DNA from: Synechococcus sp.
GTDB taxonomy: Bacteria > Cyanobacteriota > Cyanobacteriia > Thermostichales > PCC-7336
DNA: 64,000 nucleotides
Direction: 5' to 3'
NCBI GenBank assembly: GCA_051439605.1
Contig: JBFRWN010000017.1
Location: 128,001-192,000 of the forward strand
Within the stretch, counting starts at the first letter, position 1, and the number at the start of each line of letters is the position of its first letter. Position numbers and translations under genes: made by a program. The notes beneath the pieces are model-generated. The model searched no databases. It saw nothing but the letters and a program-made list of their open reading frames with translations, and was not told where the DNA came from. Below, piece after piece: positions 24,043 through 42,415 of the stretch.

Positions 24043-25302
24043 TCAGCCTTCTGGTGACATTGCAGAGATGTTTGAGGTCATCATGCGATCGCGACCGGCT
24101 GCTTTGGCTTGATACAACGCTTTATCTGCCTCTGCCACCAGCATCCCAACACCGACCTCATTCTGAGGAACCATACCTGAAATCCCGAAACTGAGGGTGA
24201 CGCGATCGCGGACTTGCGAATTGACATGAGCAATACCTAACCCCTCGACCTCCGCCTGAACCGCTTGCACCACTGCCTCTGCTCCCTCAAGATCGGTGTT
24301 GAACAGCACCAGTGCAAACTCCTCTCCACCAAATCTGGCGGCCAGATCGGAGGGTCGCTTTAAGGCTTCCTTGAGCACAGCCGATACCTGTTTGAGGCAG
24401 AGATCCCCTTGCAGGTGACCGTAGGTGTCGTTGTATTGCTTGAAATAATCGATGTCGCACAAAATCACAACCATGTGCGCCTGTTCGCGACGAGACAGCT
24501 GCCAAGTTTGCTCTAAAAAATCATTAAAGTATCTGCGGTTGGCTAACTCCGTCAGTTCGTCGTGGGTGGCTAAAAATTCCAGACGGCTGTTGACGCGGTC
24601 CAGTTCTACATTGGATTTTTCCAGCTCAGCTTGGGCTCGCTTGCGCGAGACAATCTCTTGCAGCAACAGTTGATTTTTGGTTGCCAACTCTTGAGTGCGT
24701 TCTTGCACCAGAGCTTCCAGATTTTGGTTGATGTGTTGCAGCTGGCGGTTAAGGGCATCTACCTGTTGACGACTTTCCTCCACCTGCAGGATGCCTCGGT
24801 AGGATCTCAATGAGGTAATAGTGATCGAGAATAGCTTTTGCTGGGTCAGTTCGGTTTTATTGCGATAGTCGTTGATATCGTAGGCCTCGATCACCGATGT
24901 CTCGGGTGCAATCCCGGGCTGGCCAGTGCGCAAAACAATTCGCAAAAACTGGTTGTGTAGGGTTTCACGAACGTATTTGACCACCTCCAGTCCCGAGAGG
25001 TCAGTCTCCATCACGACATCCAGCAGGAGCACGGCGATGTCGGAGGTATTGGCCAGAATCTCTTTGGCCTCTGCCTCAGAATAAGCGGATATTAATTCGA
25101 CGGAACGACCTTCAAATTCAAAATTCTTTAGCGCTAATTGGGTGACGGAATGCACCTGTTCTTCATCGTCAACCACCAACACTTTCCAGGGACTGAGATC
25201 GCCAGCTTCAAGAGCAGTCAGCCCGGTGTCCTCGTCTAGAAAGACAAGCTCGTCATCCTCCTCTTCTTGCCATAGAGCAGCTGGAACTATTTCGCCCTCC
25301 AT
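24043..25302 (-). CDS. Receiver-coiled coil-GGDEF diguanylate cyclase
   Basis: VVDDE, LLDVVME receiver; DELTELANRR, DIDYFKQYND, RPSD I-site, GGEEF. Confidence 0.93.
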   Translation of the reverse strand: MEGEIVPAALWQEEEDDELVFLDEDTGLTALEAGDLSPWKVLVVDDEEQVHSVTQLALKNFEFEGRSVELISAYSEAEAKEILANTSDIAVLLLDVVMETDLSGLEVVKYVRETLHNQFLRIVLRTGQPGIAPETSVIEAYDINDYRNKTELTQQKLFSITITSLRSYRGILQVEESRQQVDALNRQLQHINQNLEALVQERTQELATKNQLLLQEIVSRKRAQAELEKSNVELDRVNSRLEFLATHDELTELANRRYFNDFLEQTWQLSRREQAHMVVILCDIDYFKQYNDTYGHLQGDLCLKQVSAVLKEALKRPSDLAARFGGEEFALVLFNTDLEGAEAVVQAVQAEVEGLGIAHVNSQVRDRVTLSFGISGMVPQNEVGVGMLVAEADKALYQAKAAGRDRMMTSNISAMSPEG

Positions 25303-25323
25303 CCGGTTTCTCCTCTCTTTGCT

Positions 25324-26580
25324 TTACTCTACCGCCAAGGTTTGCGGTAGGTTCAAGATAAATGTAGTGCCTTCCCCCAAAGTGCTTTTACATTGCAAGG
25401 TACCCTGAAGGCTTTGGGTCACAATGTTATGCACGATATTGAGCCCTAAACCACTGCCACCACGATCGCGTGCGGTGGTGAAAAACGGGTCAAACATCTT
25501 CTGTTGAACTTCCGGGGCAATCCCCTTTCCATCATCCGAATATTCAATCGCGATCCGACCCTGTTGCTGTTTTACCTGGAATACTAGGCTACCCCGCTCC
25601 CCCGGCTCGTAAGCATGCACCAGCGAATTCATCACTAAGTTCGTAACTACCTGCGAAACAATCCCCGGGCAACCCTCCATTTCAATGTCGGCATCCCCTT
25701 GAACGACAAATGAATGTTTAGCTTTTTTCCACTGGGGTTCCAAACTCACGGCGATACTTTCGAGATAGCCCACCACCTTGAAGGCACGCGTCTCTAAGTT
25801 GGTTTGGTCGATCGCCACCTGCTTGAAATTTTGAATAATGTCGGCAGCTCGACGCAGGTTATTGAGAACTAAATTGCTGCTTTCAGTAGCGGTTTCCACA
25901 TAATGTTTGAGCATCGATTTTTTGAGCGCCCCGCTGCTGAAAGAGCGATCGAATAGGGCGGTTTCCTGGGCGAGCACGGAGGCAGCCAAGATGGCGTTTC
26001 CCACCGGCGTATTGATTTCGTGGGCCACTCCTGCTACGAGCTGACCCAGACTGGCTAATTTTTCTGTCCGGACCAGCTCCTCCTGCATGGCCTCCAGTTC
26101 GGAGAGGGTTTGAGAGAGTTCTTGGGTGCGCTCCCGCACTTGGTCCTCCAGGCCTTGGCGATACACCATTAACTGTTTTTCTTTCTCGTAGCTATTTAGG
26201 GCTTCGCGCACAGTGAGCTGGAGGTCGGAAGGGGGCCAGGGTTTGCCTAAAAAGCGATAGAGATTTGCGGTGTTGATGGCATTGGCAATGCCTTCTAAGG
26301 TGGCATGTCCGGTAAGCATAACCGCCAACGTATGGGGGGAGATACGGTGAATGTTGGTGAGCACTTCGTCTCCTTTCATGTCTGGCATGATGTAGTCGGA
26401 GATGACTAAGGCTAGCTCGCAATCGTCCTCAAGCAGATCTTCCACCAGGCTGAGGGCATCCTCTCCCCCAATGGCCGTTTCAATTTCACACCGGTCTTCA
26501 AACGCTTCAGACAGTTCCCGCCGTAGGCTATCTAGCACAGAGGAATCGTCGTCAATACAGAGAACAATCGGTTTAGACAT
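25324..26580 (-). CDS. Hybrid histidine kinase (REC-HisKA-HATPase), no sensor domain
   Basis: CIDDD / ISDYIMP receiver; GVAHEINTP H-box, NSLVHA, DDGKG, FFTT, GSGLGL. Confidence 0.93.
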   Translation of the reverse strand: MSKPIVLCIDDDSSVLDSLRRELSEAFEDRCEIETAIGGEDALSLVEDLLEDDCELALVISDYIMPDMKGDEVLTNIHRISPHTLAVMLTGHATLEGIANAINTANLYRFLGKPWPPSDLQLTVREALNSYEKEKQLMVYRQGLEDQVRERTQELSQTLSELEAMQEELVRTEKLASLGQLVAGVAHEINTPVGNAILAASVLAQETALFDRSFSSGALKKSMLKHYVETATESSNLVLNNLRRAADIIQNFKQVAIDQTNLETRAFKVVGYLESIAVSLEPQWKKAKHSFVVQGDADIEMEGCPGIVSQVVTNLVMNSLVHAYEPGERGSLVFQVKQQQGRIAIEYSDDGKGIAPEVQQKMFDPFFTTARDRGGSGLGLNIVHNIVTQSLQGTLQCKSTLGEGTTFILNLPQTLAVE

Positions 26581-26592
26581 GGCAGGGCATGT

Positions 26593-26991
26593 TTAAGTCA
26601 ATTTGGCTATGGCCGTTTTAATACAGTTAGCCAGTTCGTGGCTATCCCACGGCTTGCGAAGGCATGCGTGCAAATTAGCGTTCTGACGAGCATTGTCGAC
26701 CGCATCGTCGTCTGCCTGACCGGTAAGCAACACTTTAATGGTTTCGGGATATTTGCGATGGGCCTCAATCAACAGCTCGTCCCCTTTTTTGCCGGGCATC
26801 AGCCAATCAGAAACAATCAGCAGTACGGAGGTCTTCTCCTCTTCCATTTCCTCCATCAGCTCAAGGGCTTCGTCGGCATTGGCAGCTGTTTCGTAAGTGT
26901 AGCTGTCCCCAAAGGCTTCTTCCAGTTGCCGGAGGAGACTGCTGAGGATAATTGCTTCGTCATCAACACAGATAATGGCTGGTTTGGTCAT
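26593..26991 (-). CDS. Stand-alone response regulator receiver
   Basis: CVDDE, VSDWLMP, LTGQ, KPW. Confidence 0.92.
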   Translation of the reverse strand: MTKPAIICVDDEAIILSSLLRQLEEAFGDSYTYETAANADEALELMEEMEEEKTSVLLIVSDWLMPGKKGDELLIEAHRKYPETIKVLLTGQADDDAVDNARQNANLHACLRKPWDSHELANCIKTAIAKLT

Positions 26992-32209: not shown

Positions 32210-32243
32210 TTGGGAAGAGTTCAGTTCAGCTATTGAGTTAGTG

Positions 32244-32360
32244 AAAACCATTTTAGTTAAAGCCATTTAAGATGAATTCATTATTAATGAAAGAAATTTT
32301 AGATAGTGCTCTTTTTAGCTAAAGCCATTTTAGGCCAAGTTATTTTAGGTAATGCATTGG
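32244..32360. repeat. Degenerate 15-16 nt tandem repeat (about 7 units)
   Basis: aaaaccattttagtt / aaagccatttaagat / gaattcattattaat / gaaagaaattttagat / agtgctctttttagct / aaagccattttaggc / caagttattttaggt. Confidence 0.55.
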
Positions 32361-32564
32361 GGGAAACTCTCCGCAATGGTTTTGGCAGATGACCCGTTCT
32401 AGGGCTATTGCTGCAATTGTTTAGATCTATGTCGGAGTACTTCTACGTATCAAACAGAGAAGATTTACGTACAGCAATGTCTAATGTGCTAGGAATACTG
32501 AGTTCGCTGAGGGTGAAGACGGGTAACTTCTTTGACATCGATGTCGCTTTCTTTAACCACCACT

Positions 32565-33167
32565 ATGAAGACGGTTTTGGTAATTGATGATGACCGGGCG
32601 ATTGTAACCCTGATCGTTAAGTCACTGGAGCGAAAAAACTATCAAGCCATCGGATGTCTGAATGCCTCTGAGGGCATTGAGCAGGCAATTGCACTGAAAC
32701 CAGATCTCATTCTGTGCGATGTGGTGATGCCTGACATATCTGGATACGAGGTGCTCACAATTCTGCGTAGCAACCCTGTGACGCAGTCGATTCCGTTGAT
32801 GTTTTTAACCAATAAGACCCACAAACGAGATGTGATGGAGGGCATCTCTTTAGGGGCCGATAACTATCTCAGCAAGCCCATCGATGCAGAATTATTACTG
32901 GCCACGGTTGCGGCTCGATTTGCCGATCTCGATGAATCCTCGGTTGTGGAAGGTATGCTGGGCAGACCTGGCATCCATCCTGACCTAATTGAACAGTACC
33001 AAGGTTGGTGGGCAGCTGTAGAGCCCACAACAAACCGCTGTTTTCTGGGCAAGACCCGCGAGATGGCATACAAGTCCGCTTTACGGGCGAATCCCACCGG
33101 AGTTTTTCTGTACCAACAATTGGGCAACAGTACAAACGCTCATACCAATCAAACAGTGTACGCATAG
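32565..33167 (+). CDS. Response regulator: receiver + DUF5678-like C-terminal domain
   Basis: IDDD, LCDVVMP, FLT, SKP; tail YQGWWAAVEPTTNRCFLGKTREMAYKSALRANP; start set at 32565 by identity with the paralogue N-terminus MKTVLVIDDD. Confidence 0.85.
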   Translation: MKTVLVIDDDRAIVTLIVKSLERKNYQAIGCLNASEGIEQAIALKPDLILCDVVMPDISGYEVLTILRSNPVTQSIPLMFLTNKTHKRDVMEGISLGADNYLSKPIDAELLLATVAARFADLDESSVVEGMLGRPGIHPDLIEQYQGWWAAVEPTTNRCFLGKTREMAYKSALRANPTGVFLYQQLGNSTNAHTNQTVYA

Positions 33168-33257
33168 CTAGGGTAATTGCGCTATGACTACTGAGAGCGT
33201 TGAGCATGGAAATGGGGAACGTTCTTGAGATAGATTTCGTTTTCTCTCACCTCCCTT

Positions 33258-34445
33258 ATGAAGACGGTTTTGGTAATTGATGATGACCGGGCGATCGTGA
33301 CACTGATCGTGAAGTCGCTAGAGAGGAAAGGCTATCAAGCTATAGGGTGCTGTGGTGCCAGGAAGGGCATCACTCGGGCAATGGTGCTTAAACCAGACCT
33401 CATCCTGTGCGATGTGGTAATGCCTGATATATCGGGTTACGAGGTGCTCACAATTCTGCGCAGCAACCCTGGGACGCAGTCAATTCCGTTGATGTTTTTA
33501 ACTAGCAAGAGTAACCAACGAGATGTGATGGAGGGCCTTGCTTTAGGGGCGGACAACTATCTCAGTAAGCCCATCGATACAGAATTGCTGCTGGCCACGG
33601 TTGCGGCTCGATTTGCCGATCTCGATGAATCCCCTGCCAAGGTAAACAGTTGGAGCAAGCCTGGCATACATCCCGATCTACTTAAGGAATACCAAGGCTG
33701 GTGGGCGGCTTTAGAACCTGAAACGAATCGTTGTTTTCTGGGCAAGACCCGCGAGATGGCATACAAGTCCGCTCTACGGGCAAGTCCCACCGGGCTTTTT
33801 CTGTACCAACAATTGGGCAACGGTCCTCAGAGTAATCCAAAGAAAACAATTTTGGTCATTGATGATGACCAGGCGATCGTGACATTGATCGTGAAATCGC
33901 TAGAGAGACAAGGACATCACGTTATAGGGTGTTGTAGTCCTAAGAAGGGAATCACTTGGGCAATGGTGCTTAAGCCAGACTTGATCCTGTGCGATGTGGT
34001 AATGCCTGAAATCTCGGGTTACGAGGTACTCACAACTCTACGCAGAAACTCTGTAACACGGTCGATTCCATTGATGTTTCTAACCTGCAAGAGTAGCCAG
34101 CGAGATGTGATGGAAGGCCTCGCATTGGGAGCCGACAACTATCTCAGCAAGCCCATCGATACAGAATTGCTGTTGGCCACAGTTGAGGCTCGATTTGCCG
34201 ATCTCGATGATTCCCCTTCTAAGGTAAACAGGGGGAGCAAAGCTGATATCAATCCCGATCTGGTTAAGAAATACCGAGGTTGGTGGGCAGCCGTAGAACC
34301 TGCAACGAATCGCTGTTTTCTTGGGAAGACGCGCGAGATGGCATACAAGTCTGCACTGCGAGCAAATCCCACAGGTGTTTTTCTATACCAAAAATTAGAC
34401 AAAAGTCTTGAGAGTCATCCAAAGAAATCTTTATTCGTAAGGTAG
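33258..34445 (+). CDS. Response regulator with two tandem receiver + DUF5678-like modules
   Basis: Two further closely similar copies of the preceding protein fused in frame. Confidence 0.85.
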   Translation: MKTVLVIDDDRAIVTLIVKSLERKGYQAIGCCGARKGITRAMVLKPDLILCDVVMPDISGYEVLTILRSNPGTQSIPLMFLTSKSNQRDVMEGLALGADNYLSKPIDTELLLATVAARFADLDESPAKVNSWSKPGIHPDLLKEYQGWWAALEPETNRCFLGKTREMAYKSALRASPTGLFLYQQLGNGPQSNPKKTILVIDDDQAIVTLIVKSLERQGHHVIGCCSPKKGITWAMVLKPDLILCDVVMPEISGYEVLTTLRRNSVTRSIPLMFLTCKSSQRDVMEGLALGADNYLSKPIDTELLLATVEARFADLDDSPSKVNRGSKADINPDLVKKYRGWWAAVEPATNRCFLGKTREMAYKSALRANPTGVFLYQKLDKSLESHPKKSLFVR

Positions 34446-41289: not shown

Positions 41290-42415
41290 ATGGAAACAGC
41301 CGAACTAAGCCGCTCCCTCGAGGCATTAGACTCTCGCCTGGGTAAAGCCCAGGACTATCTTTGATGTCCCTGCCCTCGAACAACAAATAGCCGTCATGGA
41401 GCAGGAAGTCTCTCAGCCCGAGTTTTGGGGTGATGCCGAGGCTGCCCGCAAGTCCATGCAAAAGCTGAATTCCCTCAAGCAGCCGCTCGAACAATTGAAA
41501 GATTGGCGATCGCGTCTTGAGGATGCGCAAGCCATCCTGGAGCTGCTGGAGGAGGATGACGATCCTGCTTTACGCGATGAAGCTGAGCAGGCTGCTTCCA
41601 CGTTGGTGAACGAGCTGGACGCCTGGGATTTACAACAGCTGTTGTCTGGCCCCTTCGATCGCAAGGGGGCTATGTTAACCATTACAGCTGGTGCTGGTGG
41701 TACAGACGCTCAGGATTGGGCAGAGATGCTCCTGCGCATGTACGTCCGCTGGTGCGAAAACCAGGGATACACGGTCAGCACGCTAGAACTGTCGCAGGGG
41801 AACGAAGCAGGGATTAAGTCCGCCACCATTTCGGTGGATGGGGACTATGCCTATGGCTATTTGTCAGCAGAGAAAGGCAACCACCGCATGGAGCGTATCA
41901 GCCCCTTTAACGCCAACGGTAAACGCCAAACGAGTTTTGCTGGGGTCGAGGTTATGCCCATTCCCGATGAGGAAGCCGAGTTCGAGCTGAAGCCCGACGA
42001 GCTGGAGTTCGAAACTTCTCGCTCGGGGGGGGCGGGGGGCCAAAACGTCAACAAAGTTGAAACCGCCGTACGGGTGGTGCACAAACCCACCGGAATTGCG
42101 GTGCGCTGCACCCAAGAGCGATCGCAATTACAGAACAAAGAGCGGGCTCTGCAAATTCTCAAGGGCAAGTTGATGGAGCTGGAGGAGGAAAAGCGCCAGC
42201 AAGAATTGTCGGAAATTCGCGGTGAAATGGTCACCCAAGGGTTTGGGGGACGCATCCGTACCTATACTTTCGACCCCTACAAAATGATCAAAGATCACCG
42301 GACGGGGGTAGAAACTCATAACGTCGATGGCTTTATGCAGGGGGATGCTGACGAGCTGGCTGCGTTTATCCAAACCTATTTGCGTCAAGTCAATGGTGTG
42401 GGAATGGAAGAGTAA
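41290..42415 (+). CDS. prfB: Peptide chain release factor 2 with programmed +1 frameshift
   Basis: ORF0 [24 protein letters not shown] ends CTT TGA at 41359-41364; +1 frame GAT GTC CCT joins the 41396 ORF, which carries SPF and GGAGGQ. Confidence 0.96.

Follow-up and report, generated by a model that had tools for sequence, protein, structure and literature searches.

The window, the whole stretch of 64,000 nucleotides of Synechococcus sp. DNA analysed here, contains two plus-strand genes that combine receiver domains with a short C-terminal tail. Gene 1 (32,565–33,167) encodes a protein of 200 aa composed of one receiver, a linker and a tail, and gene 2 (33,258–34,445) encodes two receiver–tail modules in a single frame (395 aa). 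Each of the three modules comprises a receiver of 120 aa, a linker of 15 aa and a tail of 52 aa. The modules start at 32,565, 33,258 and 33,840, with spacings of 693 and 582 nt, and are 75–84% identical in their DNA. The open reading frames and the Pfam matches bear out the claim of an earlier note on this DNA that a module of about 190 aa occurs three times in tandem, once as a single gene and twice fused; one receiver was recognised in gene 1 (PF00072, 85.2 bits, cut-off 30.2) and two in gene 2 (168.5 bits).

The first receiver spans 32,565–32,924 (PF00072, E 4.5e-24), with the codons of Asp52, Thr82 and Lys104 at 32,718, 32,808 and 32,874. The second (33,258–33,617; Asp52 codon at 33,411) and the third (33,840–34,199; Asp codon at 33,993) were likewise delimited by Pfam, and in the third a lysine occupies the position of the start methionine. 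As the earlier note had stated, every receiver keeps the acidic triad, the phosphoacceptor Asp52, Thr82 and Lys104 (three of three copies). The first tail, at 32,970–33,125, is predicted to form a helix-strand-strand-helix-strand arrangement (model pLDDT 86); the second (33,663–33,818) and third (34,245–34,400) were defined by the alignment and the dN/dS analysis of the copies. A Pfam scan of all three tails gave no match at E<=10 and the NCBIfam matches, far below their cut-offs, cover the receiver alone, in agreement with the view that the tail is neither a helix-turn-helix nor an enzymatic output.

The immediate neighbours of the two genes are a DUF2079 gene and a DUF3747 gene (Pfam), and the statement that no cognate kinase is adjacent holds for these neighbours; a receiver-kinase hybrid and two receiver genes are found about 6 kb upstream of the triplet. 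The minus-strand region 24,043–26,991 was read by eye as a single receiver, a receiver-kinase hybrid and a receiver-GGDEF protein, at least the first two of which are syntenic in a congener. Five AT-rich direct repeats with a period of 15–16 nt lie at 32,238–32,348, upstream of the leader of gene 1. Their 19-nt unit is unique to this position in the genome at up to two mismatches and two congeners, whose spacers are shorter, lack the repeats; they may be binding sites or the product of local slippage. A scan of the locus matched no promoter of the sigma-70 type and showed no terminator excess. Elsewhere in the window, the plus-strand ORF 41,396–42,415 resembles release factor 2 without its N-terminus and is presumably release factor 2 with the usual programmed frameshift.

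Selection on the modules and history of the triplet

Comparison of the three copies (NG86) gave dN/dS values of 0.05–0.12 for the tail, with one tail dS (1.57) near saturation, 0.14–0.16 for the receiver and 0.6–3.0 for the 15-aa linker. The excess of synonymous changes, based on raw counts, was significant in all three pairs for the tail (p 2.6e-6 to 1.9e-12) and for the receiver, and in none of the three for the linker. The tail is a genuine domain under purifying selection. The earlier reading of a conserved tail and diverging linkers was thus supported by the very check proposed for it, the tail ratio falling well below 1, and the low ratios of tail and receiver, together with the synonymous excess, rule out neutral duplication.

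The repeated unit takes in about 120 nt of leader besides the gene. The leader of copy 1 (32,440–32,561, plus strand) aligns to 33,139–33,254, the duplicated leader ahead of gene 2, with a score of 118 (maximum of 74 in 500 shuffles), and the first part of this second leader now codes for the end of gene 1. At 582 nt, the second unit falls 111 nt short of the first (693 nt). At the junction of copies 2 and 3 (33,819–33,839, plus strand), identified from this spacing and the leader alignment, the frame continues with neither stop nor leader, so copies 2 and 3 form one protein; the leader and the stop would have been lost from this junction by deletion after the duplication.

An assembly artefact was ruled out by the junctions seen in public reads and by a second strain with the same arrangement. 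The copy 1/copy 2 junction is present in contigs of at least two of four public DNA runs and the copy 2/copy 3 junction in contigs of at least three of the four, one of which may be the window's own source. No RNA run was among the public sequencing runs listed for this sequence, which says nothing for or against its expression. A diverged strain encodes the same one-plus-two set, a 200-aa protein and a 388-aa two-module protein (P0003 and P0005, each on a 16,827-nt contig). In a tree of 22 rows, which excludes a truncated copy (in G018) and exact or near duplicates of included rows, the six copies from both strains group together as one clade (support 100/99). The triplication is therefore real, recent and local. 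Two congeners (G001 and G003) carry a single copy at the same locus, between the DUF2079 and DUF3747 genes, and triplication was accordingly rejected as a trait of the family; among congeners the number of fusion copies ranges from 1 to 3. Because the triplication is recent and local, with two congeners single-copy, it tells little about the mechanism of the family.

Kinship of the tail with the partner of a retropepsin-like protease

RssB, CheV and PATAN-REC are response regulators with protein-binding outputs. These and the RpaA, PleD and PhoB types share with the proteins described here the canonical receiver fold and active site, but the tail matches none of their outputs, and the proposed profile, HHpred-type and structure searches matched it to no known response-regulator output. 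A full-length fold search returned receivers only. With the tail model, fold searches found nothing at E<=0.001 in the PDB or a viral library, which does not in itself make the fold new; the best hit had Z 4.2 (rmsd 4.3, 58 aligned), none reached Z>=5 and no HicB was among the rows listed. A sequence search of solved structures with the tail profile gave no E below 0.48.

Profile comparison identified a different relative. The tail aligned over 52 columns to a cyanobacterial family of about 105 aa (HHalign probability 98.5%, E 3e-15), matching residues 45–96 of that family only and sharing with it an invariant Trp, an Ala-x-Glu-Pro motif, Phe, Ala and Pro. Among 97,226 six-frame ORFs of this genome, an unfiltered search with a profile made from that family alone retrieved only the two window genes (E 4e-11 and 2e-4). 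The tail profile matched 28 further places in 12 other cyanobacterial genomes, and the 20 loci that we read, holding 22 of the 28, show a stand-alone protein of about 105 aa and, directly behind it, a 120-aa protein with a DTGF motif, the stop of the first gene overlapping or abutting the start of the second. The 120-aa protein resembles the clan AA model TIGR03698 (E 1e-9 to 1e-11 in three of three scanned, below the cut-off), and DTG is the clan AA motif according to the main text of PMC11957051, where the retropepsin-like proteases of Pseudomonas are described as secreted (RloA) or cytoplasmic (RimB); the term DUF does not occur in that main text. An intact protease directly follows the partner gene in 17 of 22 cases and a remnant in two more. 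A second partner family associated with the same kind of protease is linked to the first at 96% (HHalign). An Atlas search with the window tail (best score 0.76) was treated as a lead only and left out of our conclusions, and a word-based tail-profile search among proteins of 30–105 aa yielded 42 candidates, none of which scored.

By profile similarity, the tail is homologous to the 52-residue core of the partner and appears to descend from the partner of such a retropepsin cassette. The fusion differs from the cassette in several respects: a receiver stands in place of the N-terminal arm and helix of the partner, the Gly-rich C-terminal end is missing, new aromatic residues occupy the old protease-facing side, and the protease encoded downstream in the cassette is neither adjacent to the fusion nor found in this genome. 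The cassette is itself prone to tandem duplication, with three tandem partner–protease cassettes in one genome (L031 and L041 in G203) and a doubled partner in another (L044 in G221). Partner-type domains also occur in other settings: two independent Xaa-Pro aminopeptidase proteins (P0024 and P0025; PF00557, PF05195) end in two of them in tandem and P0023 is a double domain alone. Domain fusions in P0068, P0116 and P0119, which by eye look like misassemblies or read-throughs, were left out.

The earlier note had likened the tail to DUF5678 (PF18929), a family of similar size and pattern. The likeness stands for the pattern and for the context with retropepsins, as a true DUF5678 member is joined to a retropepsin in one protein at 20 of the 30 cyanobacterial loci read; membership does not stand. 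The tails do not reach the gathering score of 23.2 bits (best E 0.089, in one of 13 tails), a PF18929 search matched neither the three window tails nor anything else in this genome, and profile-profile comparison gave probabilities of 1.9–10% (E 0.003–0.03). The stand-alone partners also fall below the PF18929 cut-off, and the name that some of them bear was given automatically by Atlas and UniRef. DUF5678 is probably a distant sister of the family that unites tail and partner, and "DUF5678-like" is a fair label for the tail by context and pattern. The single-chain DUF5678–retropepsin fusions (L145–L174), which are about 205 aa long and carry a DSG motif, occur commonly in cyanobacteria; matches to PF18929 were present in 48 of 301 genomes, and several copies break off behind the DUF5678 part. 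In the literature searched, the term DUF5678 appears only in connection with an unrelated plant topic.

A likeness to the HicB antitoxin had been proposed as well, and the idea that the tail neutralises an orphan HicA under phosphorylation control is, in our judgement, extremely improbable. The N-terminal domain of HicB (PF15919) is small, of the alpha/beta kind, and has a helix preceded by Gly-x-Thr, a loose pattern that the tail has in common with it, and the pairwise HHalign E values are 0.01–0.035. The corresponding probability is 1.5–3.7%, against 98.5% for the protease partner; HicB models matched none of 13 tails and none of 55 relatives, and neither HicA (PF07927) nor HicB was found in this draft genome, the HicA control being positive in 10 of 14. 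The antitoxin likeness was therefore abandoned.

We modelled the complex of a partner and its protease with a stand-in partner from another species and its own protease dimer. The model scored 0.89, compared with 0.09 for the best of three controls; 116 of 157 solved complexes attain the mark used, as do two of 215 mismatched pairs, counts that are only roughly applicable here. The runs share at least 95% of contacts, and the pLDDT of the partner is at least 90. In the model, the partner makes contacts through its N-terminal arm and helix (residues 8–40) and through helix residues 76, 79 and 83, its last strand (90–95) lies against protease residues 57–59, and its C-terminal end (99–105) packs against residues 36–37 and 59–61, next to the catalytic Asp33. 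This supports binding of the stand-alone partner to the protease dimer with its C-terminal end in the active-site cleft. We take protease residues 54–62 to be the flap and the pose to be one of inhibition, as general knowledge of retropepsins would suggest; the ancestral partner is thus predicted to grip the flap and plug the cleft, and the same pose may instead be that of a substrate or an activator.

Mapped onto this model, the tail has lost most of the predicted protease-binding surface of its ancestor. It retains nine of 36 interface positions, the N-terminal arm, the long helix and the Gly-rich C-terminal end having gone. At the same time, three positions have taken on aromatic character in the fused tails: position 79 is Tyr or His in 14 of 14 (Ser in 11 of 18 partners), position 91 is Phe in 14 of 14 (His in 12 of 18 partners) and position 93, variable in partners, is Tyr in 12 of 14.

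No retropepsin was found beside the fusion at any of 12 loci in the DNA examined around each, compared with 17 of 22 for the stand-alone partner genes. None was detected in this genome by six family models, a pair of custom profiles or a scan for the motif; the models include TIGR03698, TIGR02281, PF13975, PF13650 and PF05618, five protease models that were positive in controls. A filtered search of this genome with a profile of the DUF5678–protease fusion, run without a positive control, also returned nothing. The assembly is a draft of 143 contigs, 99.98% complete by markers, and a protease gene could be unassembled; within it, the genome search suggested by the earlier note for orphan HicA or retropepsin-like partners found neither. 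Among the four genomes of the genus, of which one is a single contig, none gave a match to the cognate protease family of the cassette. Other fusion-bearing relatives hold retropepsin-like genes of different kinds: cassettes of the second partner family (G028), one second-family partner with a broken protease together with an unrelated small retropepsin-like gene (G002), and two other retropepsin-like genes (G076).

Such genes, the tight tie of the ancestral family to its protease and the retention of the strand modelled as pairing with the flap of the protease would suit a fusion that controls a retropepsin-like protease in trans, one that is unassembled, too divergent or located on a mobile element. 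We consider this unlikely. The kept strand has a different consensus, 27 of the 36 predicted interface positions are gone, including the C-terminal end with the Gly, Gly and Ile that are invariant among the partners, and the cognate family was found in none of the four genomes of the genus, even the single-contig one.

The receiver–tail family and its candidate kinases

Within the order, the tail-profile search identified receiver–tail fusions in seven of 30 genomes, with 13 matches in all. Across 301 genomes sampled from the class, with only 21 candidates scored per genome, it found one such genome, belonging to another family. A phmmer search of 1.84 billion representatives gave 14 matches, seven of which are real fusion proteins; the others are long or repetitive proteins and were treated as false (four of these seven were read). 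The complete genome of one congener (G002) carries three unlinked paralogues. One of them is oriented divergently to a cluster some 800 nt away that, judged by eye, encodes a phytochrome-like GAF protein, a receiver and a PAS protein (L179:4884-11392). The phospho-accepting Asp is present in 21 of 22 family modules. The exception (L011:1078-2085, G023) has Ala at this site, keeps the tail and adds a C-terminal FHA domain. Another member (L007:1120-1749, G018) has a receiver without its first third and is probably decaying. The literature searched, with supplements and most subscription papers lying outside it, contains no description of the receiver–tail fusion or of the partner–protease pair. 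The proposed domain-architecture search thus showed a fusion that recurs within the order and once outside it, with no published characterisation found: this is a real, undescribed response-regulator architecture with a limited distribution, a single order and a few others besides.

A metagenome scan with gene 1 met the full-length fusion at one of 80 loci, the others matching essentially the receiver part (four were read). The nearest of these receivers carry C-terminal extensions that, by our reading of the sequence, resemble DNA-binding outputs. Together with several basic residues on the tail helix and two members that their sources name a transcription factor or a DNA-binding regulator, this could indicate that the tail binds DNA or RNA and that these proteins are unusual transcriptional or post-transcriptional regulators. 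We regard this as very unlikely, given that the tail matches no nucleic-acid-binding family, helix-turn-helix or other, at E<=10, that the source names are automatic and that the ancestor is predicted to bind protein.

The member outside the order (G076) is linked to a kinase: the fusion gene starts 16 nt after a gene for a PAS-HisKA-HATPase kinase. The window receivers are this genome's best matches to the receiver of that member (117–108 bits, compared with 95), and two kinases of this genome are nearest to its kinase, with 52% and 46% identity (31% for the next). These candidates are encoded at C81:66938-68671 and C27:38012-39586, and by eye no response-regulator gene follows either. The neighbourhoods of 12 fusion loci contain no common gene that points to a target.

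Proposed phosphorylation and function of the tail

The AlphaFold model of the gene 1 product, built from a 13-row alignment, has a mean pLDDT of 86.6 and a pTM of 0.83. Because we estimate that two free domains would give a pTM of about 0.61, the tail is predicted to dock on its own receiver, a prediction that rests on this one pTM number.

Based on the origin of the tail, its constraint and its altered surface, we tentatively hypothesise, at somewhat less than an even chance, that the window proteins are orphan response regulators whose tail came from the partner of a retropepsin and now serves as a phosphorylation-switched protein-binding output with a target other than that protease. A kinase encoded elsewhere in the genome, perhaps one of the two candidates, would phosphorylate Asp52. 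Phosphorylation would free or reorient the last strand of the tail and the aromatic patch acquired in the fused family, composed of the Tyr or His on the helix and the Phe and Tyr on the last strand, and the freed edge strand and patch would then bind a new target protein. The three copies, which stem from the recent tandem duplication of gene and leader with one junction fused in frame, may raise dose or valency; they are not needed for the mechanism.

A docked tail is also what would be expected if it acted as a lid that tunes receiver phosphorylation or decay, making these proteins CheY-like phosphate sinks or single-domain regulators whose additional copies enlarge the sink. The aromatic patch could then serve docking on the receiver only, and the absence of a target gene that travels with the family and the variation from 1 to 3 copies between congeners would fit such a role. 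This alternative seems to us rather unlikely. The member in G076 has a kinase of its own, as an ordinary output-bearing regulator would, constraint on the tail is no weaker than on the receiver, and the tail is kept in the FHA-bearing member with Ala at the phospho-site, where a lid would be useless.

A fuller history would join the phosphorylation-switched output to its origin. In it, a receiver would first have gained the inhibitor half of a mobile protease cassette, undescribed and toxin-antitoxin-like, which brought the retropepsin under kinase control; in the present lineage this half would have outlived the protease, re-evolved its binding face and come to transmit phosphorylation to a new target. 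We hold this sequence of events to be doubtful, if conceivable.

The triplication, an ordinary recent duplication, is the least interesting part of this locus. The fusion adds to the response-regulator repertoire an uncatalogued output domain whose origin can be traced, and its relatives provide a concrete model for a common and unstudied cyanobacterial pair, in which a small partner is predicted to wrap a retropepsin and plug its active site. Comparison of the stand-alone partner with fusions that have and lack the protease would show stepwise how a domain of a selfish-looking cassette becomes a signalling part.
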